A model generated the notes under the pieces. That model had not been told where the DNA came from. It made no database searches and saw only the letters and a program-made list of their open reading frames with translations. A program made the translations under genes and the position numbers. From assembly GCF_058153355.1 (NCBI RefSeq), contig NZ_CM177019.1: a DNA stretch of 64,000 nucleotides; one strand, 5' to 3'. Below, piece by piece: positions 7,817-42,041 of the stretch (position 1 is its first letter; each line of letters starts with the position of its first letter).

Positions 7817-8152
7817 ATGCCAAAGATTGTTATTTTGCCTCATCAGGATCTCTGTCCTGATGGCGCTGTTCTGGAAGCGAATAGCGGTGAAACCATTCTC
7901 GACGTTGCGCTGCGTAACGGCATCGAGATTGAACACGCCTGTGAAAAATCCTGTGCTTGCACCACCTGCCACTGCATCGTTCGTGAAGGTTTTGATTCGC
8001 TGCCGGAAAGCTCAGAGCAGGAAGACGACATGCTGGACAAAGCCTGGGGGCTGGAGCCGGAAAGCCGTTTAAGCTGCCAGGCGCGCGTTACCGACGAAGA
8101 TTTAGTGGTCGAAATTCCGCGTTACACTATCAACCATGCGCGTGAGCATTAA
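7817..8152 (+). CDS. fdx: [2Fe-2S] ferredoxin Fdx
   Basis: 111-aa ORF with Cys cluster ([12 protein letters not shown] ... C). Confidence 0.95.
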
Positions 8153-8163
8153 CAGAGGTTAGT

Positions 8164-8364
8164 ATGGGACTTAAGTGGACCGATAGCCGCGAAATTGGCG
8201 AAGCACTGTACGATGCATATCCCGATCTTGATCCGAAAACGGTTCGATTCACCGATATGCATCAGTGGATTTGCGATCTGGAAGATTTCGACGACGACCC
8301 GCAGGCGTCCAACGAGAAAATCCTCGAAGCGATTTTATTAGTCTGGCTGGACGAAGCCGAGTGA
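8164..8364 (+). CDS. iscX: Fe-S assembly protein IscX
   Basis: 66-aa acidic ORF at the expected position after fdx. Confidence 0.9.
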
Positions 8365-8369
8365 TTTCC

Positions 8370-8500
8370 GCGTCATGCTTCACGCCGCAGATGCGTTGGC
8401 TGCGCTCGTTCACCCCAGTCACATAGTTATCTATGCTCCTGGGGCTTCACTCACTTGCCGCCTTCCTGCAACGCGAATCATTTAGCGGAAAAATCCTGGG
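8370..8500. repeat. ERIC/IRU element (enterobacterial repetitive intergenic consensus)
   Basis: cgttcaccccagtcacatagttatctatgctcctggggcttcac plus flanking cacgccgcagatgcgttggctgcgctc match the ERIC imperfect palindrome as recalled; lies in the iscX–pepB spacer. Confidence 0.55.
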
Positions 8501-8541
8501 GCTGCCAACTGGCGGCCCTTTTACAAATAAGGATAACTAAA

Positions 8542-9825
8542 ATGACAGAAGCGATGAAGATTACCCACTCGACCCAACCTGCCGACGCGCGCTGGGGAGA
8601 AAAAGCGACTTACAGCATTAATAATGATGGTATTACCCTGCATTTGAACGGGGCAGACGATCTGGGGCTGATCCAGCGTGCGGCGCGCAAGATTGACGGT
8701 CTGGGTATCAAGCATGTTCAGCTAAGCGGTGAAGGCTGGGATGCGGATCGTTGCTGGGCATTCTGGCAAGGTTACAAAGCCCCGAAAGGCACGCGTAAAG
8801 TGGAGTGGCCGGATCTGGACGATGCCCAGCGTCAGGAACTGGATAACCGCCTGATGATCATCGACTGGGTGCGTGACACCATCAACGCACCAGCAGAAGA
8901 ACTGGGGCCATCGCAACTGGCACAGCGTGCTGTTGATCTGATCAGCAACGTCGCAGGCGATCGTGTGACTTACCGGATCACCAAAGGTGAAGATCTTCGT
9001 GATCAAGGTTATATGGGGCTGCACACTGTCGGGCGTGGTTCAGAACGTTCCCCGGTATTGCTGGCGCTGGATTACAACCCAACTGGCGATAAAGAAGCGC
9101 CGGTGTACGCGTGCCTGGTAGGTAAAGGCATCACCTTTGATTCCGGCGGCTACAGCATCAAACAGACCGCGTTTATGGACTCAATGAAGTCTGACATGGG
9201 CGGTGCGGCAACGGTTACCGGGGCGCTGGCATTTGCCATTACGCGCGGTCTGAACAAGCGTGTGAAGCTGTTCCTCTGCTGTGCGGATAACCTGATTAGC
9301 GGCAACGCGTTCAAACTGGGGGATATCATTACCTATCGCAACGGTAAAAAAGTCGAAGTCATGAACACCGATGCGGAAGGGCGTCTGGTTCTGGCAGATG
9401 GCCTGATTGACGCCAGTGCGCAGAAACCGGAACTGATTATCGATGCCGCGACACTCACCGGTGCGGCGAAAACCGCGCTGGGTAATGATTATCACGCGCT
9501 GTTCAGTTTTGACGATGCATTGGCCGGTCGCCTACTGGAGAGTGCCGCCCAGGAGAACGAACCGTTCTGGCGTCTGCCGCTGGCGGAGTTCCACCGTAGC
9601 CAGCTGCCATCTAACTTTGCGGAACTGAACAATACCGGAAGCGCGGCGTATCCGGCGGGTGCAAGTACGGCGGCGGGCTTCCTGTCGCACTTTGTTGAGA
9701 ACTATAAACAAGGTTGGCTGCATATCGACTGTTCGGCGACTTACCGTAAAGCACCGGTTGAACAGTGGTCTGCGGGTGCGACCGGGCTGGGTGTGCGCAC
9801 GATTGCTAATCTGTTAACGGCGTAA
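8542..9825 (+). CDS. pepB: peptidase B (M17 leucyl aminopeptidase family) PepB
   Basis: Conserved start [10 protein letters not shown] at 8542 (427 aa); M17 motif NTDAEGRL present. Confidence 0.9.
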
Positions 9826-28742: not shown

Positions 28743-28958
28743 ATGGAACTCAACTGCCCAACCTGCCATAACCCTCTCGAACGCAACGGTGAAACTGCCC
28801 ACTGTGCAACTTGTGCCAAAGATTTCACCATTCAGGCGCTTTGTCCTGACTGCCATCAGCCATTACAGGTGTTAAAAGCTTGTGGTGCAGTAGATTATTT
28901 CTGCCAGCATGGGCACGGTTTAATATCCAAAAAGCGCGTTGAATTTATTGTTGCTTAA
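28743..28958 (+). CDS. yfgJ: zinc-ribbon protein YfgJ
   Basis: 71-aa ORF with CxxC...CxxC pairs. Confidence 0.85.
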   Translation: MELNCPTCHNPLERNGETAHCATCAKDFTIQALCPDCHQPLQVLKACGAVDYFCQHGHGLISKKRVEFIVA

Positions 28959-29149
28959 TATTATTTAAATATATGGTGTAATCATTTGTATTCATAATAT
29001 AAATGATTGCATCCTATTTTATTTGTTGAAACGCAAATGTAAGTGAGCGAAATCACTGTGTTATAAATTTAAGATTATATTTAGTTTTCCTGGCGTGCCT
29101 TTCTGAATAATCTGGAATAGAATATTAGAGCTAATTTTAAGCATTATTA
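28959..29149 (+). promoter_or_regulatory. AT-rich leader / probable promoter region of the accessory insert
   Basis: ~190 bp of AT-rich sequence immediately upstream of the sinH-like gene; no specific promoter elements resolved. Confidence 0.35.
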
Positions 29150-31342
29150 ATGTCACAGGGGATGTGCATGCTGCGATGGAAACGCTGTATTATGCTAACA
29201 TTTATCTCTGGAGCTGCTTTTGCGGCTCCAGAGATAAATGTTGAGCATAAAGAATCGTTACCTGATTTAGGTAGTCAGGCCGCACAACAGGAAGAGCAAA
29301 CTAACAAGGGTAAATCGCTAAAAGAGCGTGGTGCCGATTACGTCATTAACTCTGCCACGCAAGGGTTTGAAAACCTGACACCCGAGGCGCTGGAGTCCCA
29401 GGCCAGAAGCTATCTGCAAAGTCAAATTACCTCTACGACACAATCTTATATTGAGGATACACTCTCCCCCTACGGTAAGGTCCGAACGAATCTTTCTCTT
29501 GGTCAGGGCGGCGATCTGGATGGCAGTTCCATCGATTATTTTGTTCCCTGGTATGATAATCAAACTACTGTTTATTTCAGCCAATTTTCTGCACAACGAA
29601 AAGAAGATCGTACGATCGGGAATATTGGGCTTGGTGTAAGACATAATTTTGATAGATGGTTATTGGGTGGAAATATATTTTATGATTATGATTTTACCCG
29701 TGGGCATCGCCGTTTAGGTTTAGGTGCCGAAGCCTGGACTGATTATTTAAAATTCTCTGGCAACTATTATCATCCGCTTTCTGACTGGAAAGACTCCGAA
29801 GATTTCGATTTTTATGAGGAGCGTCCTGCGCGCGGTTGGGATATTCGCGCCGAAGCCTGGCTACCCGCTTACCCGCAGCTTGGCGGTAAAATCGTTTTCG
29901 AACAGTATTACGGTGATGAAGTCGCGCTTTTTGGCACCGATAATCTGGAGAAAGATCCCTTCGCCGTCACGCTGGGTGTGAAATACCAGCCCGTACCGCT
30001 CATTGCCGTAGGAACGGATTTCAAAGCCGGCACTGGCGATAATACCGATCTTTCTGTTAACGCAACGCTGAACTACCAGTTTGGCGTCCCGCTCAAAGAC
30101 CAGCTTGATCCTGACAAAGTAAGCGCGGCTCACTCGCTCATGGGCAGCCGTCACGACTTTGTTGAACGTAACAACTTTATTGTTCTGGAATACAAAGAGA
30201 AAGATCCCCTCGATGTCACTTTGTGGCTGAAAGCTGATGCGACGAATGAACATCCCGAGTGCGTGATTAAAGATACGCCAGAAGCAGCCATCGGGCTGGA
30301 AAAATGTAAGTGGACCATTAACGCGCTCATTAATCATCATTACAAAATCGTTGCTGCCTCCTGGCAGGCGAAAAACAATGCTGCACGTACGCTGGTGATG
30401 CCGGTTATCAAAGAAAACACCCTTACTGAAGGGAACAACAACCACTGGAATCTGGTACTGCCTGCCTGGCAGTACAGCTCTGATAAAGCCGACCAGGAAA
30501 AACTCAATACCTGGCGGGTACGCCTGGCGCTGGAAGATGAAAAAGGCAATCGGCAGAACTCCGGCGTGGTGGAAATCACCGTTCAGCAGGATCGTAAAAT
30601 TGAGCTCATCGTTAACAACATCGCCAATGTACCGGATGAGAACAATCACAGCCACGAAGCCAGCGCGCAAGCGGATGGTGTAGATGGTGTCGTCATGGAT
30701 CTCGACGTTACCGATAGCTTTGGCGACAACACTGACCGTAACGGTAATGTCTTGCCGCAGGATAATCTCAGCCCGCAGCTGTTTGATGCCAACGATAAAA
30801 AAGTGACGCTGGCGAATAAACCCTGCACCACCGAAGTGCCGTGCGTTTTTATCGCCAAACAAGATAAAGAAAAGGGGACCGTTACGCTCTCCAGTACGTT
30901 GCCCGGCACCTTCCGCTGGAAAGCGAAAGCCGCCCCTTATGATGACAGTAACTATGTTGACGTAACGTTCCTGGGTTCTGACATCGGCGGGCTGAATGCT
31001 TTTATCTACCGCGTTGGTGCAGCTAAGCCCGTCAATCTTATCGGCAACAAAGAACCGTTGCCTCTCAATAGCCGCTATCGCTTTGTGCTGTGGCGCGACG
31101 CTAACAAAGACGGCGTGTTCCAGCTTTCTGAGAAGCTCACTGACGACGAGATGAAACAGTATGACTATCAGTGGGAATTCACGGGGAATAGCGTAAATGG
31201 CAATACCGGCGCGCAAACCAATACCACGAACGTCGATATAGAGATCCCGGCAACCAACAAGGAAGCGGCAGCAAAATTTAATGCTCAGGTAACCGATGGC
31301 GTGCAGGGATACGGTTTGCAGGTCAATTACAGCAAGAAATAG
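29150..31342 (+). CDS. sinH: intimin/invasin-family inverse autotransporter (SinH-like)
   Basis: 730-aa ORF. Residues ~150–340 match the intimin/invasin beta-barrel translocator (…ERPARGWDIRAEAWLPAYPQLGGKIVFEQYYGDEVALFG…GVKYQPVPLIAVGTDFKAGTGDNTDLSVNATLNYQFG…SRHDFVERNNFIVLEYKEKD, compare intimin …LIYEQYYGDNVALF…SRYDLVQRNNNIILEYKK). Signal peptide present; first in-frame start may be downstream of 29150. Confidence 0.8.
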   Translation: MSQGMCMLRWKRCIMLTFISGAAFAAPEINVEHKESLPDLGSQAAQQEEQTNKGKSLKERGADYVINSATQGFENLTPEALESQARSYLQSQITSTTQSYIEDTLSPYGKVRTNLSLGQGGDLDGSSIDYFVPWYDNQTTVYFSQFSAQRKEDRTIGNIGLGVRHNFDRWLLGGNIFYDYDFTRGHRRLGLGAEAWTDYLKFSGNYYHPLSDWKDSEDFDFYEERPARGWDIRAEAWLPAYPQLGGKIVFEQYYGDEVALFGTDNLEKDPFAVTLGVKYQPVPLIAVGTDFKAGTGDNTDLSVNATLNYQFGVPLKDQLDPDKVSAAHSLMGSRHDFVERNNFIVLEYKEKDPLDVTLWLKADATNEHPECVIKDTPEAAIGLEKCKWTINALINHHYKIVAASWQAKNNAARTLVMPVIKENTLTEGNNNHWNLVLPAWQYSSDKADQEKLNTWRVRLALEDEKGNRQNSGVVEITVQQDRKIELIVNNIANVPDENNHSHEASAQADGVDGVVMDLDVTDSFGDNTDRNGNVLPQDNLSPQLFDANDKKVTLANKPCTTEVPCVFIAKQDKEKGTVTLSSTLPGTFRWKAKAAPYDDSNYVDVTFLGSDIGGLNAFIYRVGAAKPVNLIGNKEPLPLNSRYRFVLWRDANKDGVFQLSEKLTDDEMKQYDYQWEFTGNSVNGNTGAQTNTTNVDIEIPATNKEAAAKFNAQVTDGVQGYGLQVNYSKK

Positions 31343-31391
31343 GGTCGGCGCCATGGCTGATCGGGCCACCGCTGAATATTAATCAAGGAGA

Positions 31392-32390
31392 GTGTTTATG
31401 AAACCTGATATGAAACGTGGCCTGACAAAAGTCGCGCTCGCGTTGATGCTGGCTGGATACTGTGCCGTACCAGCCGCTATGGCGGAAGATGCCGCCTGGG
31501 TCGCCAGTGGAGCGACCGCTGAATTCGAAGGGACTATACCCTGGCTCTATCGCGAAGGGGGGAATGCCACGATTAACTCGGAAGATGCGGATCACATTAA
31601 AGTGACGTCTGATGGTAAAGGGACCCGTCCTCCAGGTAGCGAGACGGATAAACGCCTTTACTCAGGGGATACCATCACGCTGGGTTGGGATATCGGCGAT
31701 ACCGAAGGGGATATTGATGATGGTCCCGCAGGCATTGATGCGAAAACGACGGCCACTATCAAATGGTACAGCTACAGCAATAATGCGGGTGGCGATAAAA
31801 CTGAGCTGACCGCAGCGGCAGGCAAGACGAGTTATAAACTCACTGATGACGATCGTGGGCGTTATATCGGTGTTGAAATCCAGCCCATCACCCAGACCGG
31901 TAATCCCTTCGAGGGAACGTCGCTGACTCTGCTGGATATTTCAACGGCCAGCGGTGGCGGCAGCGATACGGACAATGTCGATCCCGGCCCGGTTGTGAAC
32001 CAGAATCTGAAAGTTGCCATCTTCGAGAAAGGCACCACTACCAACCTTATCGGTGGTAACACGGCCATTGCGCTTAATAAAACATATGTGGCCAAACTGT
32101 ACTCGGATGAAAACCAGAACGATAAATACGACGCAGGTACGGATATGGACGTTACCGCTAACTATGACTTTGCATGGGTCTTTAACGGTAACAGTAAACA
32201 ACTCCGTGCTGCAGGCGGTATTGCTAATGCCAGCTTCGATAACAATGACATTGTTATCCCGCAAACTAACGAAGAAGCAAGAACCAGCCTTAACGGTAGT
32301 GACCGTAATGGTAAGAGTGGTCTTGCGATCCCAGCAAACGGCGACGGCGTTCAGGGCTATACGCTGTCAATTATTTACAAACACCACTAA
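31392..32390 (+). CDS. sinI: secreted protein paralogous to the SinH C-terminal domain (SinI-like)
   Basis: 332-aa ORF with signal peptide (KVALALMLAGYCAVPAAMA). C-terminus shares clear motifs with the SinH C-terminus: YDFAWVFNGNS / YDYQWEFTGNS, IVIPQTNEEAR / IEIPATNKEAA, DGVQGYTLSIIY / DGVQGYGLQVNY. Confidence 0.6.
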   Translation: MFMKPDMKRGLTKVALALMLAGYCAVPAAMAEDAAWVASGATAEFEGTIPWLYREGGNATINSEDADHIKVTSDGKGTRPPGSETDKRLYSGDTITLGWDIGDTEGDIDDGPAGIDAKTTATIKWYSYSNNAGGDKTELTAAAGKTSYKLTDDDRGRYIGVEIQPITQTGNPFEGTSLTLLDISTASGGGSDTDNVDPGPVVNQNLKVAIFEKGTTTNLIGGNTAIALNKTYVAKLYSDENQNDKYDAGTDMDVTANYDFAWVFNGNSKQLRAAGGIANASFDNNDIVIPQTNEEARTSLNGSDRNGKSGLAIPANGDGVQGYTLSIIYKHH

Positions 32391-32499
32391 TGCGCACGAC
32401 TGCATTCCCGTAGGGGAATGCTGTTTTCCGCCTGTTTTGCTTAGCGACGCGTTAAGCAAAACAGGTTGATGTTTTGTTTATCATGTTGGAGTTTTCTAC

Positions 32500-35400
32500 A
32501 TGTCGGTATGTCTGAAACCAGGGAAAATCATTATGCTTCTGGGCATGTTGGCAGCGTTTATGCTGTCTGACTTTGCACGAGCAGGGGTGGAATGGCAGAC
32601 ATATCCTGATTCTACAGGCGAGTTTAACGGAACCGTTCCTTTTGCCGACAGCGCCAGCGTACCCGTCTATCAGGGCAGTGTTCAGCTTAATCCTGGCGAA
32701 TCTCATGATGTCGGGTTTTCTGCTAAACCGAATGAATTTAGCGTTGACGATGACGCCGCTAACCTGATTGTTGCTAATCCTCAGGACAATGAAGGCGACC
32801 AGTTTTCCACACCACCTGCGCTGCGCTGGGAAAATCAAACACCCCCTACCGTCAGCCTGGTGTGGGCCGATGCCGCCACGCCCGATGTACCCCTTAACCC
32901 ACAACCCATTGCTAACCGTAGCTTTTGTGCTCAGGGGCTCGCCGGACGCTCGCTGGTGGCCTGGCCGCAGATTGATGCGCAGCAAACCCTCCCACTGCTC
33001 TACCTGTTGACCTCGACCGGCTATCCCTATGCGGGGACGGTGGCGCTGGTGGACCAGAAAGTGACCCTGAACATCGCGCCCGCGCAGGGCGATTTAATCT
33101 CGGTGAGCGCCAGCGGTTATAACGAAACGATCGCGGCGGCAAAAACCACCGTTGGCGACACCATCACGCTCACCGTCACCACTAAAGATTGTCAGGGCAA
33201 CGTCGCGGGTAATATTCCGTTTATTATCAAACGTAAAGATGCTGAAAATCGCCAGGGGGCAGTGAATAATAGTGCGCCAGTGGTACTGGATAGCACCGAG
33301 TTAACGACGACGGCTACCGAATACCATGGCACCTCTGATGCCAACGGCACGGCCACCATCACGGTGAGCCAACCGAACGGCCCTGGCGTCAAAACGCCAC
33401 TGGTGGTCAGCATTTCCGGCATTGCGCAAACCAGCGAAACCGCGGTGATTTTTACGGTGCTCACCAGCCCGGACGCGGCGCAGGCTACGATGTGGGGCCA
33501 TATGGCGGAAACGGTAGAAGCGCACGGTTACACCTTCAGTCGACCAAAGCTGGCGGCAGAAGTCAGCAATGAAAGCGCCACGGTCGTCGATCACAACGAA
33601 ACCTGGTCCACCTTCACCTGGAGCGGCGCAGATAACCACTGCACCGTGCTGCCCGGCATGCGCCACTTCGGCGCGCTGGCGACCGTTATCCCCACATCGG
33701 TGCAGACAGTCCTTGGCTGGCCGATGCAGGGGGATTATTACTGGTCATCGCTGGCGGGCACCACCGGGCAGCACCATGCGGCGGATGTCTCTAACCGTGG
33801 TGAAACGCAAAAGCCGGATAGCACCCCGTTTCTTGTAAGCTGCGTGGATAAACCCGCGCCTGATGTCGAGCCGAAAATCGTCCTTACGCCCGAAAACTAT
33901 GATGATACGGCACAGGCGATGAAATCGCAGGTGGGCGAAGACGCCACGATGCGTCTGACGATCACCGACAATAAAAATAACGATCAACCACTGGCGTATT
34001 ACTACTTCTCGCTGCATCTGGATGACGGCGTTAACCGCAAAAATCAAACCGATTCCGCCTGGGAAGCCCATCCGGTGCAGATTACTGGTGGTTCGAATTT
34101 GCAACAGGTTGATGCTCACACCTATGAAGGCATGACCGATGTCAACGGTCAGGCTTCGCTAACCCTGAGTCAGCCCGACGGCGCAGGCGTGAAAACCCAT
34201 ATCACGGCGAAAATGCGCAGCAATTTTACGGCTACAGATGCCAAAGACGTGATTTTTACTGTGATCACCAGCCCGGACAGCGACAAGGCGCGGATGTGGG
34301 GCCATATGCGCGGCATTGTTGTATCTGGCAGTCTGTTCAAACGCCCAGTGCTGGCGGATGAAACTGAGCATGAACTGGGATCGGTGCGGGAAAATAACGA
34401 AGACTGGGCGCTGTTCGATCAAGACACCAGTATGCAGGCTGAATGCGGCGTCGGCCATACGCCAAGTCAGAGTGGGCTGGAAAGCCTTTTTTCAGCCCAT
34501 CCCGGTAACGCGATTGGCACTGAGTATGGCTGGCCCACCGCACAACAGAACTACCTAAGCGCGGTGGAGCAAGCCACGCATTCATCGGTGAATTTGGCGA
34601 ACGGAAACGTCGACAGCTACCCCGGCTTTAAGCGAAATTACCTCTCCTGTTCGGGCAATGAGATGGTCGCGAAGGTTGAAGTGAGCACCGATCACGATGT
34701 CACCCCTGGCAGCAAAGCGCAGGCCAAAGTGGGAGACACCGTCGTGATGACCGTGCGTACGGTTAACGCGCTCAATAATACCCCCGTTCCCTTTACTGCC
34801 TTCACCATCACTAAAGGCATGGGGTATAACCGAGCGGGGCTGGTGAGCGGGTTTGATGACCCGAGCAGCGGCGCAATCTCGATGAATGGCACGCAATACG
34901 GCACATCGCAGCCGTCGATGGTTTATACGGGTACGACAGATGCACAAGGCGTGGCAACGGTCGAAATAGAGCAACCACAAGGCGTCGGGCTAAGAACGGC
35001 GCTGAGCGTAACGCCGGTAAATTCCTACCTGCCGAATACCGTTAATTACAGCGTTATTTTCACCACCCCAACCAGCCCGGACGTTATTGGCGCGCAGATG
35101 TGGGGCCATATGGATGAAACGATTACTGTTGATTCATTAACCTTTACCCGGCCTAAGCTGGCAGCAGAAATCGCCAGTCCGGATGGCACACTAACGGAAA
35201 AAAACGAAGTCTGGGCGCGCGTTAGCCAGGCCAGTACGGCCATTACCAGTAAAGGCGGTTGCGGAGCCAATATGCTGCCGCGTCGCTCACAGCTCAGTGC
35301 GCTCTATGACGCTAATAACGGCAATGCGGTGCAAACCACACACGGCTGGCCGACGCAGCGTCAGCCCTACTGGAGCAGTTCCCCCGCGGATGTAACGCCG

Positions 35401-38400
35401 CACTATTACACCATTGCCCTGGATAACGGCGCACAGGCTATCGGCGGCGATACGCCGGTTTACGTCAGTTGCCTGACGACGGCGAACAAACCTGCCAGCA
35501 GCATTACGCTGGATGTGGTTGATAACGCACAGTGGGCTGCCGGAAATAACGCGGCGAAGCTGAAAAAAGGCGAAACGCTACGGGTTAAGGTAACGGTAAA
35601 AGATGCGCAGGGTAATCCGCTCACGGATATGCCATTTAAACTGAGTCGCGGAGACGGTTATACCCGCACGGGCGAAAAACATATTGCCGGTAGTGGCGAT
35701 GCGCTGGTGGCACCGGTGGTGATTAACAGTGGGCTGGCGGATGAAACGACGTTGAACGACACCGCGGGATTTTATACTGCCATGACCGGTAGCGACGGCA
35801 GCAAAATCCTCAATATTACCCGCCCGGATACTCACGGCACCAAAACGGCGCTGACGGCGACGTTGTATTCCGATGCAACAAAAAAAGACAGCCTGGATAC
35901 GATCTTTACTGTGGTCACCAGCCCGGATAGTAGCAAAGCGAAAATGTGGGGGCATATGCCGGAAACGGTGACGGCTGCGGACGGTACGGTATTTAAACGC
36001 CCGCTGTTGTTGAAGGAACTGGCCTATCAGACTGGGCGAACATCGACGTCTGAAGACAATGAAAACTGGGCGTTGTTTAACATTAATTATGCGAGTTCTT
36101 CCACGACGTATAGTGGCTGTGGAACCAACTATATTCCGACTCAAGCCGGTCTGACGTCACTGTTTGCTAATAATGCGGGCAACACCATGAAAACCGTGCA
36201 GGGCTGGCCGGTGGCAACACGCTATTTGTCCAACACGTCCGACAACGGCAGCATGGAGCAGCGTAACTACAAGGCGGTAGATCTCAGCAATGGCACGAGT
36301 GCGGCAGTGTCATCAACGGCGCTGCAACTGCTGACCTGCCAGACCACGCCGGTAACCACGGTGGGCCAAATTCTGCTGGAAGCGGCAGATCCGGCGACGC
36401 TGGATACCACCTATAACGTGGTAAAAGCGAAAAAAGGCGAAGAATCCGTGGTGCGCGTCACCACCAAAGATACGCAAGGCAACCTGGTGGGCAATACGGC
36501 ATTTATCCTGACGCGTGCCAACAGCGTGAGTCGGGCTAACGCATCAGCAACCGCGAGCGTGGGCGCGCTGACGGTGACGGATGCTTGGGGAAATACGCGA
36601 AATAATTTCCAGTCGACGAGTGAAACGATTTACGGCGTGACTGGTGCAGACGGGTCAACGACATTTACCCTGAAACAGGATAACAGTACCGGGTTAAGAA
36701 CCGATCTCACGGCAAAACTGGATACGTCCAGCAGCGTCAAGGCGACGCTACCGGTGGTCTTTACTGTCGTGACCAGCCCGGATTCGCCAAAAGCGAATTT
36801 TTGGGGACATATGGCCGAAACGGTGATGGCCTCCGACGGTACAATCTATAAACGACCACTGTTGTTGAAAGAGCTGAGTAACACCAGTGGTCGAAATTCT
36901 ACGGCTGAAAACGGTGAAGATTGGGCAAGATTCACCTGGACTCAGTCGGCTGACACCAGCATGAATGGGTGTGGTACAGATTATATGCCGACGCTGGATG
37001 GACTGAAGTCTTTGTATGACGCCAATAGCGGTAATGTGATGAGTACGGTGCAGGGATGGCCGGTAAAAACGACCTATCTCACCAATACCCCGAGTGATAC
37101 GCAAACAGGGAGCCGTTACTACAATGTGGTGCAACTGAATACTGGTGCAGTCTCACAAATCTCGACGAACACAGTCGTGCTACAAACCTGCCGCACAACG
37201 CCGTTGACGGCTGCTAGCCAGATTACGCTGGAGGCCTCAGACCCCGCGCAATTTGTCAGCATTGACAGTACGCTTAGCGCGATCAAAGTGCAGAAAGGCG
37301 ATAGCGTGTCGATCCGCATTTCGACTAAAGATGCACAGGGGAATTTAGTCGGCAATACGCCGTTTGCCCTGAAACACGCTAACCCGGTCAATCGCCAAAA
37401 TGTGGCGTCAACATCGCAGAAAGTGTCGGTCACGACTGCGTCGGGTACGACGGTGGATACCACTGCATCGACCATTCTGTATGGCGTGACCGGGCCAGAC
37501 GGAACCACCACGATGACACTCCGACAGGATGCGTCTACTGGACTCAAAACCGACTTTTATGCTCTGTTGAACGATACCGGCGTGTCGTCGAACACCTTGC
37601 CAGTGATCTTCACCGTCGTCACCAGCCCGGATACACCGCTGGCGGCCAACTGGGGGCATATGGCAGAAACCTTTACCAGCAGCAAGGGAGTCACCTTCAA
37701 ACGGCCTTTCCTCAAAGCTGAACTTTCTGGTGGTACGGCGGTAACGACCAATAATGAAGTCTGGTCGCGCCTGACAGCAACGGAGAAAACGGATGCCAGC
37801 AAGGCTGGGTGTGATGAGAGTTATCAACCGCTGATGACTGACATGCAGGGGTTGTATGCGGATTACCCTAACAACCAGTTGGGCACGGTGCTCGGCTTGC
37901 CGACTTCCGCCGGGTATATGTGGGCCTACGACATGATGACGGTTTCTGGCAGCAGCTGGAGCAACCAGGCATATTCGCTCGTTAATGGTCAGACAGTTCA
38001 GGCATCGTCCAGTTATACGGCGGTAGTGATGTGCCTGGTGGAACCGCATACCGTTCCGGCGATGATAGAGATCACTTCAACAGCACAGGATGCGGCAAAA
38101 ACGGTCAGCAATGGTGGTCGACCGAGCGCCGTAGCGAAGAAAGGTGAGACGATTCCGCTGACGGTGACCGTACGTGATAGCACCGGGAATCCGGTACCCT
38201 ACGCCGACTTTACCCTCACGCGTGGAACGACGCTGGATCGCTCGAAAGCAACCGTTAACTCGAGTGCGGACGATCTTACCGTGAAGTCATTGATACCCGC
38301 GAACAGTGACGCTGGGCTGACGGCAAATGGGGCAAAAGTGCTCAGAACAACGGGCAGTGATGGCACAGCCACCTTTGAAGTGAGCCAGAATGCCACGACA

Positions 38401-40590
38401 GGACTGGCGACCCCCATAACCGTCACGCTGGCGCGTGATGTAACCAAAACCGCCACGCTGGATGTTATCTACACGGTGATAACCAGCCCGGACTCACCGA
38501 GCGCGAAATTCTGGGGGCACATGCCGGACACCTTTACCAGTTCGGCAGGCGTCACCTTCAGACGACCGCTGCTGAAAGCCGAAGCGACTTCAGGGTCATC
38601 GATTAGCACTAACGGCAATGGTGAAGTGTGGTCGTATATGAGCAACGTTCAAAATTTAACATCGACAGATTGTCCGCTGGAGAATCAACCGCGCAGTAAT
38701 GAATTGTTGGATTTGTATAATGATCATCCCAACGGCGCGATAATGACTGACCTGGGGCTGCCGATATATGCAGGCAAGTGGTGGGCTTATGATATGGTCA
38801 TGCCGGATTTATATACGTGGCAGTATCAGACGGTCAGCCTGAGCGCAGGAGATATCGCGAAGAGCTCGGCAAGCAACGCGCTGATGCTTTGCCTGACGAA
38901 GCCGCATCCGGCAGGCGTCAGCGTAATGTTGACGTCATCCGCAATGGATAACGCCAGAACCCTCAGTAATGGCGGGCGACCCAGCGCGTCAGTGAAAAAA
39001 GGTAACCCACTGCCAATTGTGGTGACGGTCAAAGATCGTGATGGCAACCCGCTGGCGGGAGAGGCCGTGACGCTCAGGCGTGGTTCAGCGATGAGTCGTT
39101 CAGGAGCAGGAGTGGGCACGCCGGCAAATGCAATGACGTTGACAGAATTGACACCTGTGTCGGCGGAGTTTTCTCTGGCCGCACACGATACGCAATGGCA
39201 AGGTTTCACCGGCAGTGATGGTACGGCCACTTTCAATGTTGAACAGCCTGAGACCATCGGCCTGGCCATTTCGTTCACCGCTATACTGGCGCGAGATGTA
39301 GCAACTACCAGCGTCCTTGATGCGATCTTTACCGTCGTTACCAGCCCGGATTCCGCAATGGCGACCTACTGGGGCCATATGCCGGATACGGTAACGGCGG
39401 AAAACGGCGTGGTCTTTGAACGGCCTAAATTGTTGAAAGAGCTGCCGTCGAGCGCCGGAGTCAGTCAGGTGACGGATAACAATGAAGTGTGGCCGTTGTT
39501 TAAGGCAACGCAAAGGGAAGATAGCAGCCTCAGTCCTTGTGAAGCGGCACGTCGGCCATTGAGCGATGATTTATTATCGCTCTACGCGCGCTATCCGGGG
39601 AACACGCTGACGACTCAAATCGGCTGGTCTACGAAGTATGCATGGTGGGCACTGGATAACAAGCAGGGGAATGCCCTGGTTGTCAGTCTGAATAATGGTT
39701 TTGAGTCGTCGACGGCGAGTACGGGGTATCAGGGATGTCTGGTCAATCCCCGCGCGACCGTCTCCAGCGTCACGCTGACATCGACGGCGCTGGATGCCAC
39801 TACGCAGGCAGCGAAGGTAAAAAAAGGTGAAGCCGTGCCCCTCGTTGTTACCGTAAAAGACAACGCCGGGAAGCCGGTACCGAATGTCGCTTTCACCTTA
39901 AAACGTGGTGATGCCATGCCACGTAACAGCGGGGCGACGTTGTACGGTGATGTTGCGGCGATGGATGATATGACGGTACAACCTGCCAGCGGGACGGTGG
40001 TAACGCTGGCTGACAGTGGGAATACGGTCGACGGAGTGACTGGGGCGGACGGTACGGCAAGTTTTACCGTTCGTCAGGATAATACGCCAGGATATAAAAC
40101 GCCGTTGACGGTGACGCTGACGGATAACGCCACAATAACGGCGATGCTGGATACGATTTTCACCGTCGTTACCAGTCCAAATGTACCCACAGCCCATTTT
40201 TGGGGACATATGTCGGATACCACTGTGGTAAACGGTAAAACGCTACATCGTCCACAGTTGGAATCAGAACTGCCATCGGCAGCCATCATGGTGGCAACAC
40301 CGAACGTCAATAATGAGACGTGGGCACTGGCGCATACTGTTGACTCGCAAAAATGGGATATTTCGCAGCAGTGCGGCCTCCTTGATTTTGCACCGAATTA
40401 TGCGGATTTAGAGGCTCTGCACACTAACTTCAGTACTCTCGGATGGCCGTCAATGCCTAATACCCCCTATCTATCTAAAGACAGAGAGCGGTCAGGTAAG
40501 TATTACTGCGGTATGATTGAAGAGACAGGTTCTCAATCTTGCAGTATTGAGCCTACCAGCACGCCGGGATTTGCTACTTGTGTCAGGTAA
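32500..40590 (+). CDS. ratA: giant repetitive surface protein, RatA-like (2696 aa)
   Basis: Single uninterrupted ORF with N-terminal signal-like hydrophobic segment ([17 protein letters not shown]) and nine tandem modules each carrying the motif [IV]FTV[VI]TSPD-x6-WGHM…RP.L…E.W…GCG…GWP…C. Confidence 0.75.
33000..40300 (+). repeat. nine tandem ~840-bp coding modules inside ratA
   Basis: TSPD-WGHM motif DNA (accagcccgga...tggggncatatg) recurs at about 33465, 34267, 35065, 35915, 36773, 37623, 38483, 39343 and 40173, period ~800–860 nt; the copies are diverged, not identical. Confidence 0.7.
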
Positions 40591-40599
40591 AAAAAACAG

Positions 40600-40630
40600 A
40601 GCCAGCACGACGATGCTGGCGCGTTTTATC
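40600..40630. terminator. hairpin between convergent ratA and xseA
   Basis: gccagcacgacgatgctggcg followed by ttttat, in the 44-bp gap between the two stop codons. Confidence 0.5.
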
Positions 40631-40634
40631 TGAT

Positions 40635-42041
<1,407 letters not shown>

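Follow-up and report, generated by a model that had tools for sequence, protein, structure and literature searches.

How a barrel-less protein of 2696 amino acids and a small partner encoded beside it reach the bacterial surface, and whether an inverse autotransporter can serve as their two-partner translocator, are questions that have been asked since 2003 and 2016. They are raised here by an insert of ~11.7 kb, carrying the genes sinH, sinI and ratA, at positions 28,959 to 40,634 of a 64,000-nucleotide stretch of contig NZ_CM177019.1 (NCBI RefSeq assembly GCF_058153355.1); the whole of that stretch is referred to as the window. Curated hidden Markov model (HMM) scores, RefSeq annotation and the literature together identify the insert, with near certainty, as the "ila" island, the E. 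coli form of the CS54 type: an accessory cassette without an integrase, made up of sinH-sinI-ratA and lying between yfgJ and xseA. Both the locus and the translocator hypothesis are already known, and an earlier, preliminary description of the window was correct in its interpretation and restated published views. The window adds no new kind of system. It does provide handles on the export question, namely a signature open to mutagenesis, a hybrid SinI from whose architecture binding partners can be predicted, and an RNA element that predicts unequal expression. The explanation that we consider best overall, at a probability of roughly 0.55, is one in which SinI and RatA would depend on SinH at the outer membrane and RatA would be made in substoichiometric amounts.

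Three intact open reading frames (ORFs) were found on the plus strand at 29150-31342 (730 amino acids), 31392-32390 (332 amino acids) and 32500-40590 (2696 amino acids), in agreement with the preliminary description of three co-oriented genes between yfgJ and xseA. The gaps of 49 and 109 bp given there were reproduced when the same starts were used. However, two of the starts were revised. For sinH the ATG at 29168 (724 amino acids) is most likely, rather than the in-frame ATG at 29150 that would give 730 amino acids, because a Shine-Dalgarno sequence AGGGGA lies 5 nt upstream, the NF033423 match begins at residue 7 and this is the RefSeq start in EC42405. For sinI the ATG at 31398 (330 amino acids) is most likely, because AAGGAGA lies 6 nt upstream. 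With the revised sinI start the sinH-sinI spacer is 55 bp and the sinI-ratA spacer 109 bp. The three genes are as follows.

29168-31342, plus strand: sinH, intimin-like inverse autotransporter of 724 amino acids (NF033423; PF11924)
31398-32390, plus strand: sinI, SinI-family autotransporter-associated protein of 330 amino acids (NF040711)
32500-40590, plus strand: ratA-like gene, 2696 amino acids (NF011844)

The resemblance of the three products to SinH, SinI and RatA that had been noticed from the letters was borne out by profile searches. The SinH-like protein scored 1478.1 bits against the equivalog NF033423 (cut-off 999), the SinI-like protein 377.1 bits against NF040711 (cut-off 165) and the RatA-like protein 5386 bits against NF011844 (PRK15316; cut-off 3870). 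Against the Salmonella RatA and RatB models the RatA-like protein scored 1957 and 2254 bits, both below the cut-off, so that it is the orthologue of neither. In many E. coli genomes RefSeq gives the genes at this site as sinH, a SinI-family gene and an 'adhesion domain-containing protein'. One publication lists the region 'xseA..yfgJ' as the ila cluster (sinH, sinI, ratA), for which it gives CS54 as the probable origin, citing Shea et al. 2022 (PMC12928451). Long antisense ORFs within sinH and ratA were considered as genes and rejected as spurious, having no family match.

SinH belongs to the type Ve (inverse) autotransporters: its N-terminal part is a 12-stranded barrel of the intimin/invasin type, its C-terminal part a passenger. 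Its parts are listed below.

29168-29224, plus strand: signal peptide of SinH, MLRWKRCIMLTFISGAAFA followed by APE (read by eye)
29354-30175, plus strand: IAT_beta barrel of SinH (PF11924, 5e-106, residues 63-336)
30197-31339, plus strand: passenger of SinH
31013-31339, plus strand: C-terminal SinI-like domain of SinH

The barrel had been recognised in the preliminary description, and the Pfam IAT_beta match (5e-106) was accompanied by matches to invasin 4e1t (3e-73) and intimin 4e1s (7e-65). The profiles thus assign the protein to the IAT_beta/SinH family and not to a family other than intimin/invasin. No Pfam match was obtained for a passenger domain, while the last ~110 residues of SinH are homologous to the C-terminal beta domain of SinI. 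In E. coli E69 (locus L024, ~8023-8792) sinH is split by an insertion of ~770 bp with GACCTGCG on both sides. The start of this insertion (GGTGATGCTGCCAACTTACTGATTTAGTG…) we take to be the end sequence of IS1, and the sinH of this strain is probably inactivated. The E. coli orthologue of SinH is the IatB of Goh et al. 2019, who also remarked on a SinI-like downstream gene and on the analogy with zirTSU (PMC6714894). SinH has been studied as a vaccine antigen by Xing et al. 2023, where surface display of the E. coli protein was reported and its domain 3 was found to be surface-accessible (PMC9937491).

SinI is a hybrid, the C-terminal domain of which is a paralogue of the last domain of SinH, and the N-terminal segment of which is homologous, if modestly, to the N-terminus of RatA and RatB. 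The following parts were distinguished.

31398-31484, plus strand: signal peptide of SinI (by eye)
31515-31544, plus strand: N-terminal signature of SinI, TAEFEGTIPW
31644-31946, plus strand: immunoglobulin (Ig)-like domain of SinI
31995-32387, plus strand: C-terminal SinH-like domain of SinI, after a Gly/Asp linker

The preliminary description had called SinI a paralogous partner of SinH. This stands for the C-terminal ~110 residues only, where residues 622-721 of SinH align with residues 215-327 of SinI at 33% identity (E 2e-10), and where profile-profile comparison with hhalign gave a probability of 99.6% (E 1e-24). An AlphaFold2 (AF2) model of SinI, with a predicted local distance difference test score (pLDDT) of 70.5, contains two beta domains joined by the Gly/Asp linker, and T40, G45, P48 and W49 were invariant in an alignment of the family (A1). 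SinI gave no match to the IAT_beta barrel. SinI and RatA both carry Sec signal peptides, read by eye, and reading of the two sequences revealed no barrel, lipobox, type 1 secretion-type C-terminus or other recognisable anchor in either. A PDB sequence search with SinI returned nothing at E <= 1, and a Foldseek search of the model against the PDB returned nothing below 1e-3, just generic Ig and fibronectin type III folds and no structural link to a solved Zir protein. Against the ZirU family SinI scored 26.1 bits (cut-off 100; E 8e-6), which places it outside that family, apparently as a distant relative only. The first Ig-like domain of SinI (residues ~83-180) contains the motif …GD..T..W.IGDTEGD…YIG..I.P.T.TG.P… and is a very widespread repeat, its profile matching 935 cluster representatives, among them many giant proteins in which it recurs up to 27 times; in Pfam it gave a weak match to IG_AIR9 (0.0015).

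RatA consists of a signal peptide, an N-terminal domain and a long series of modules.

32500-32583, plus strand: signal peptide of RatA (by eye)
32584-33153, plus strand: N-terminal domain of RatA, ~190 amino acids
32611-32643, plus strand: N-terminal signature of RatA
33154-33945, plus strand: module 1, residues 219-482 (Pfam, module HMM)
33946-34731, plus strand: module 2, residues 483-744 (Pfam, module HMM)
34732-35568, plus strand: module 3, residues 745-1023 (Pfam, module HMM)
35569-36435, plus strand: module 4, residues 1024-1312 (Pfam, module HMM)
36436-37296, plus strand: module 5, residues 1313-1599 (self-comparison, module HMM)
37297-38142, plus strand: module 6, residues 1600-1881 (Pfam, module HMM)
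38143-39000, plus strand: module 7, residues 1882-2167 (Pfam, module HMM)
39001-39825, plus strand: module 8, residues 2168-2442 (Pfam, module HMM)
39826-40587, plus strand: module 9, residues 2443-2696, the C-terminus being the InvE_AD domain (Pfam, module HMM)

The count of nine modules in the preliminary description was recovered with a module HMM, which found nine domains, each with E <= 3e-88. Self-comparison of RatA gave a period of ~283 amino acids; this was obtained with overlapping segments of 150 amino acids, a whole-protein blastp search of RatA against itself having given the identity match alone. The Pfam scan covered residues 1-1100 and 1600-2696, and in both stretches pairs of BIg21 (formerly DUF823) and InvE_AD (formerly DUF824) were matched. 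One module matched residues 120-324 of PDB entry 5n40, a 'putative invasin', with E 6e-33. Going by the Pfam name InvE_AD, we take 5n40 to be a C-terminal fragment of InvE from Yersinia pseudotuberculosis. A pair of cysteines is found in every InvE_AD domain of RatA, 66-74 residues apart in modules 1-8. Intimin and invasin carry lectin-like tips with such a cysteine pair, joined as a disulfide. By these matches RatA is nine tandem copies of the Ig plus lectin-like adhesion tip that is seen at the ends of Yersinia InvE, intimin and invasin. Across species the Rat proteins range from 1852 to 3008 amino acids, equivalent to about 6-10 modules, and module number is evolutionarily plastic. In E. 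coli SCPM-O-B-8794 (locus L006, 11472-12236) the rat frame ends at 254 amino acids while module-like sequence runs on for ~5.5 kb, which is likely to represent a frameshift or pseudogene, or an assembly error.

Just past the signal peptide the barrel-less partners share a signature, [ST]-[TA]-G-x-[IFLV]-x-G-T-x-P, with LK-x-G-x-W-Q upstream of it in many. It is found in SinI and RatA of the window, in SinI, RatA and RatB of Salmonella, and in the partners from Leminorella, Buttiauxella and Lelliottia. Eight of nine small representatives inspected from a library of 1.8 billion proteins also carry it, and the ninth looks like a corrupted sequence. The G, T and P were invariant in an alignment of 20 sequences (A4). 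Profile comparisons of SinI with RatA were made on mature sequences, without signal peptides, and the support that they give depends on the sequence taken as master. Mature SinI matched the RatA N-terminal domain in hhalign with E 3.5e-6 and a probability of 87.6%, and the N-terminal part of SinI alone did so with E 3.7e-8 and a probability of 95%. The NCBIfam partner_SinI profile gave weak matches to the N-termini of RatA and RatB (0.0062 and 0.019). No counterpart of the SinI and RatA N-terminal segments was detected in SinH (P = 0.17 and 0.41). The Rat N-terminus was called 'highly divergent' by Heinz et al. 2016 (PMC4943183).

A third gene follows the sinH-like and sinI genes in Buttiauxella (locus L026, 10982-12070) and Lelliottia (locus L025, 1758-2864), encoding proteins of 362 and 368 amino acids; the Lelliottia contig is short and shows just the end of the sinH-like gene. 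The N-terminal half of these proteins is SinI-like (NF040711, 3e-26 and 1.5e-24) and their C-terminal region is similar to the corresponding part of intimin (6.8e-8 and 4.5e-8). By eye, the latter region contains a C-type-lectin-like motif, W..AK.WC..QGYRLP…LWQEWG. The third protein resembles a 'mini-Rat' and seems to link SinI with the giant Rat proteins in evolution.

The preliminary description had also proposed a single operon driven from an AT-rich leader. The elements that bear on transcription are given here.

28959-29167, plus strand: AT-rich leader of sinH
31345-31375, plus strand: small hairpin in the sinH-sinI spacer, CAGCG...GGCC...GGCC...CGCTG (folds of 12 loci)
32400-32429, plus strand: hairpin H1, intrinsic-terminator-like, directly 3' of the sinI stop (terminator scan, fold)
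32430-32466, plus strand: hairpin H2, stem of 16-17 bp, core UUUGCUUAR...YUAAGCAAA

The leader is indeed AT-rich, with 27.8% GC over 28959-29167 versus 51.8% for the whole window. An alignment of Escherichia and Pseudocitrobacter leaders revealed a conserved block, TTAAGATTATATTTAG, at 29069-29084 and a -10-like hexamer, TAGAAT, at 29118-29123, with TA[C/G/T]AAT at the same place across the alignment. A promoter consensus scan of the leader found no full sigma-70 match, and the promoter placed there is putative, from inference only. Just past the yfgJ stop codon, within the leader, an AT-rich inverted repeat of 18 pairs followed by a T-run (28975-29013) is possibly the terminator of yfgJ. The small hairpin between sinH and sinI shows base changes that preserve pairing among the 12 loci, has no U-tract and stands next to the Shine-Dalgarno sequence AAGGAGA of sinI. 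Lacking a terminator-like tail, it is consistent with co-transcription of sinH and sinI. In a review that cites Shea 2022, co-transcription is given for sinH-sinI only (PMC12525524).

The 109-bp spacer between sinI and ratA folds into two hairpins (-49 kcal/mol, z = -5.1). H1 has a GC-rich stem of 8-10 bp with a tetraloop (32400-32423), followed by UUUUCC. Across 18 loci from six or more genera, compensatory changes were found in 7 of 10 pairs in H1 and 10 of 16 in H2, or 17 of 26 together. Of all cells in the two hairpins 97% are paired, a set of values reached by none of 500 shuffles, while slid controls gave 37-49%. Both hairpins are present after sinI in Salmonella. The H2 core is found at this position and nowhere else in the window, and each related locus likewise has a single copy, always at the same position. 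No Rfam family matches the sinI-ratA hairpins, and an Rfam scan of the island gave no credible family. A promoter scan found no promoter-like sequence between H2 and the ratA ATG. A ratA promoter overlapping H2 was rejected because its spacing to the ATG is too short and its sequence is not conserved. H2 as a DNA palindrome of the SlyA type was likewise rejected, since the spacing does not fit and the covariation of the outer pairs is that expected of RNA. In Escherichia sp. E1V33 (locus L010, 4553-4842) the sinI-rat spacer is 290 bp versus ~110 bp, with H2 intact; by eye, an element resembling a repetitive extragenic palindrome or bacterial interspersed mosaic element (…GCCTGATGCGCTTCGCTTATCAGGCCTACA…) lies beside H1, which is partly duplicated. 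The single-operon proposal therefore stands in part. It holds for sinH and sinI, by the second-hand report of co-transcription, and is qualified for ratA by the covarying terminator-like hairpin, the conservation of which points to expression of ratA through attenuated read-through or following processing. The arrangement is probably sinHI plus attenuated read-through into ratA.

In the explanation that we consider best, SinH, SinI and RatA would all cross the inner membrane via Sec, and SinH would insert into the outer membrane and display its own passenger, a step supported by its published surface accessibility (PMC9937491). SinI and RatA would need SinH to cross, or be held on, the outer membrane, as ZirS and ZirU need ZirT, and their common recognition element would be the N-terminal signature (…T-G-x-I/F-x-G-T-x-P…, then D-x-E-G-D). 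RatA would then work as a long multivalent adhesin. Transcription would begin in the AT-rich leader, sinH and sinI would be co-transcribed, and H1 and H2 would pass a fraction of transcripts to ratA or mark a processing site, such that the giant protein would stay substoichiometric. The retention of the order sinH-sinI-rat in Escherichia spp., Pseudocitrobacter, Citrobacter, Superficieibacter, Leminorella and Salmonella, which suggests functional linkage, was counted for this explanation. Taken alone, the step in which SinI and RatA would be exported or tethered in a SinH-dependent manner seems to us an even chance. A more specific version is tentative and on balance improbable: type Ve secretion would have a true two-partner branch with the signature as its recognition signal, SinI would be an adaptor between SinH (through its C-terminal domain) and RatA (through its N-terminal module), and the terminator and stem-loop would set the ratio of SinHI to RatA.

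Several points weigh against the SinH-dependent explanation. Neither an experiment showing SinH-dependent export of SinI or RatA nor any published test of it was found in the accessible literature, and the statement in the preliminary description that the export relationship was not established still appears true. The SinI/RatA N-terminal homology appears modest, the hhalign probability being only 15.8% (P = 0.0016) with the window sequence as master. The downstream D-x-E-G-D is part of a widespread Ig-like repeat that hundreds of unrelated giant proteins contain, such that the partner-specific part is the ~12-residue G-T-x-P signature only, and this was recognised after the fact. Residues 39-65 of SinI, which include the signature, have a pLDDT below 50 in the AF2 model, and AF2 modelling of the RatA N-terminal domain from an alignment of 13 sequences gave a mean pLDDT of 38.9 and no usable fold. 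The action of H1 as a terminator is a prediction from its sequence. SinH of ~86% identity is accompanied by SinI alleles of 42-45%, which argues against tight co-evolution of a SinH-SinI interface. Finally, a barrel lumen filled by the linker of SinH itself should not pass a second substrate of 2696 amino acids, for which reason Heinz et al. had to propose an alternative topology (PMC4943183), and the accessibility of domain 3 of SinH at the surface is what a classical, self-exported passenger would show (PMC9937491).

Some of these points would be expected if SinH were self-sufficient and exported its own passenger only, with SinI a periplasmic Ig-fold helper or chaperone, RatA leaving by another route or remaining periplasmic, and the three proteins sharing a niche and not a pathway. 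In the solved structures of intimin and invasin the linker of each protein plugs its barrel, and periplasmic Ig-fold chaperones are mentioned in the study that discusses this (PMC4943183). The passenger is surface-accessible and a protective antigen (PMC9937491), IatB gives biofilm without the downstream gene (PMC6714894), and SinI alleles vary widely while SinH is nearly constant. However, nine modules of the receptor-binding-tip type would be senseless in the periplasm. Neither RatA nor SinI has a barrel, a lipobox or a type 1 secretion-type C-terminus by which to leave, and the island holds no other secretion genes. The gene order is moreover kept across at least eight genera and the barrel-less partners all share the N-terminal signature, and we regard a self-sufficient SinH as possible but doubtful. 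The combination in SinI of a RatA-like N-terminus with a SinH-like C-terminus, and its distant relationship to the ZirU family (8e-6), could also point to a surface complex similar to the ZirT-ZirS-ZirU "multiprotein immunoglobulin adhesion system". SinI would be the adaptor, holding SinH via the shared C-terminal domain and RatA via the shared N-terminal module, and crossing would be by the barrel assembly or translocation and assembly machineries (BAM/TAM), or transiently by the barrel. According to Prehna et al. 2012, ZirS and ZirU reportedly bind one another as well as the passenger of ZirT. Homology between domains does not in itself mean that they bind, however; as such a complex also overlaps the SinH-dependent explanation, differing just in the step that needs SinH, we judge it unlikely, a little more so than a self-sufficient SinH. 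That the three genes are functionally unlinked, independently transcribed and adjacent through a shared insertion hotspot would agree with the terminator-like hairpin between sinI and ratA and with a recombination hotspot of mosaic alleles. This is very improbable given the identical order and orientation and the short spacers in every genus examined, the domain-level homology among the three products, the lack of any promoter-like sequence ahead of ratA and the sinH/sinI co-transcription cited in the review (PMC12525524).

The distribution of the island was examined across genomes. Of 5426 complete E. coli genomes 1749 carry sinH, in every case on the chromosome. The order sinH-sinI-rat between yfgJ and xseA was found in several Escherichia species, Pseudocitrobacter, Citrobacter and Superficieibacter, and Leminorella has the same gene order with other flanks and two rat genes. 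The Salmonella locus, with the order der-yfgJ-sinH-sinI-ratA-ratB, was reached by exact-protein look-up and was not among the matches of the scan of genome contigs; its xseA end lies beyond the 10-kb flank analysed. Relative to HB37, the window proteins are 91% (SinH), about 67-68% (SinI) and 65% (RatA) identical, while the window SinI is 94-99% identical to those of EC42405 and H105. Within Escherichia, SinI falls into allelic classes of 94-99%, 84%, 67% and 42-45% identity to the window, with SinH at 86-96% (loci L003, L004, L006, L010, L013, L020 and L024). The 42-45% class, from other Escherichia lineages, is Salmonella/Citrobacter-like. Either cassette-like exchange of SinI or diversifying selection on it seems to be at work.

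At the DNA level the window and the Pseudocitrobacter vendiensis type strain CPO20170097T share 95-99% identity over ~29.6-36.0 kb and 37.5-40.0 kb. For most of the upstream flank the value is 72-85%, for xseA 93-94%, and for two patches of ratA, at 36.0-37.5 kb and 40.0-40.5 kb, only 73-77%. The left breakpoint lies inside the sinH barrel region, at ~29.5-30.0 kb. Because identity of the island is far above that of the upstream flank, the comparison indicates a recent inter-genus replacement of the island by homologous recombination, with ratA apparently a mosaic.

The insertion site and its flanking genes are listed below.

28743-28958, plus strand: yfgJ, zinc-ribbon protein, left flank (ORF; annotation in EC42405 and K-12)
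40601-40620, no strand assigned: bidirectional terminator-like hairpin between the convergent ratA and xseA (terminator scan of both strands)
40635-42011, minus strand: xseA, exodeoxyribonuclease VII large subunit, right flank (TIGR00237, 2.7e-156)

As the preliminary description had stated, yfgJ and xseA are neighbours in K-12; in K-12 DH10B they are convergent and overlap by 4 bp. Junction alignment against K-12 placed the ~11.7-kb insert exactly between the two stop codons, the extra DNA running from just past the yfgJ stop codon to the xseA stop region. From this overlap and alignment the insert is real. The insert junctions showed no integrase, tRNA gene or direct repeat. From the end of ratA to xseA there are 44 bp, within which the hairpin at 40601-40620 folds with -21.5 kcal/mol (z = -3.3). 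The window flanks are 93-96% identical to K-12 DNA. The window YfgJ protein is 100% identical to that of EC42405 and only 68% to that of K-12, and Der is 100% identical to EC42405 and 99.4% to H105 and HB37. Between K-12 and the window the 5' half of yfgJ is strongly divergent and the 3' half conserved, and the C-terminal tail of XseA differs as well. Recombination tracts tied to presence or absence of the island reach into yfgJ and xseA. In Citrobacter, Superficieibacter and one Enterobacteriaceae bacterium (loci L011, L012, L014, L016, L017 and L018) 2-5 kb of extra DNA lies between der and yfgJ.

SinH is a leading vaccine antigen against extraintestinal pathogenic E. coli, and the island is present in about one third of complete E. 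coli genomes as well as in Salmonella, Citrobacter and related genera. For the breadth of vaccine coverage, both the strong allelic diversity of SinI and RatA and the evidence of exchange between genera are relevant. The N-terminal signature with the SinI C-terminal copy, the sinI-ratA RNA element and the P. vendiensis transfer were not found described in the accessible literature.

The logic proposed for the SinH-dependent explanation is similar to that of type Vb two-partner secretion (FhaC/FHA), in which an outer-membrane transporter is combined with a separate, Sec-exported giant adhesin bearing an N-terminal recognition element. However, SinH has no Omp85 or POTRA part, its barrel being IAT_beta, and RatA has no two-partner secretion (TPS) domain, Pfam finding BIg21 and InvE_AD alone within residues 1-1100; the signature at the partner N-termini is short and unrelated to TPS domains. 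The tips of InvE, intimin (D2-D3) and invasin (D4-D5) occur once, at the end of a barrel-anchored passenger, whereas in RatA the unit occurs nine times and without a barrel. The ZirT-ZirS-ZirU system of Salmonella (Gal-Mor 2008; Prehna 2012) likewise consists of a barrel protein followed by barrel-less, Sec-exported Ig-fold partners that resemble the passenger. It has no giant protein of the Rat type, and ZirT-dependent secretion has been shown experimentally while SinH-dependent secretion is known only as a hypothesis. In Heinz et al. 2016 SinH was proposed, like ZirT, as translocator for SinI and Rat-like proteins (PMC4943183), and the analogy to ZirT/ZirS-type systems drawn in the preliminary description is the same one published there and by Goh et al. 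2019 (PMC6714894).

The resemblance to the CS54 island of Salmonella (Kingsley et al. 2003; shdA-ratB-ratA-sinI-sinH) was also confirmed, the Salmonella genes lying at the same site and in the order der-yfgJ-sinH-sinI-ratA-ratB. CS54 and the window share the site, the order sinH-sinI-ratA, the tandem hairpins and the signature. Salmonella encodes a RatA of 1865 amino acids and a RatB of 2435, while the window has one rat gene with nine modules and 2696 amino acids, lacks ratB and shdA, and encodes a SinI ~43% identical to that of Salmonella; it is a three-gene relative and not the five-gene island. The closest match among known systems is the ila cluster, which has the same three genes in the same order, orientation and site, and of which the window carries one allelic type, nearly identical to the P. 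vendiensis allele.

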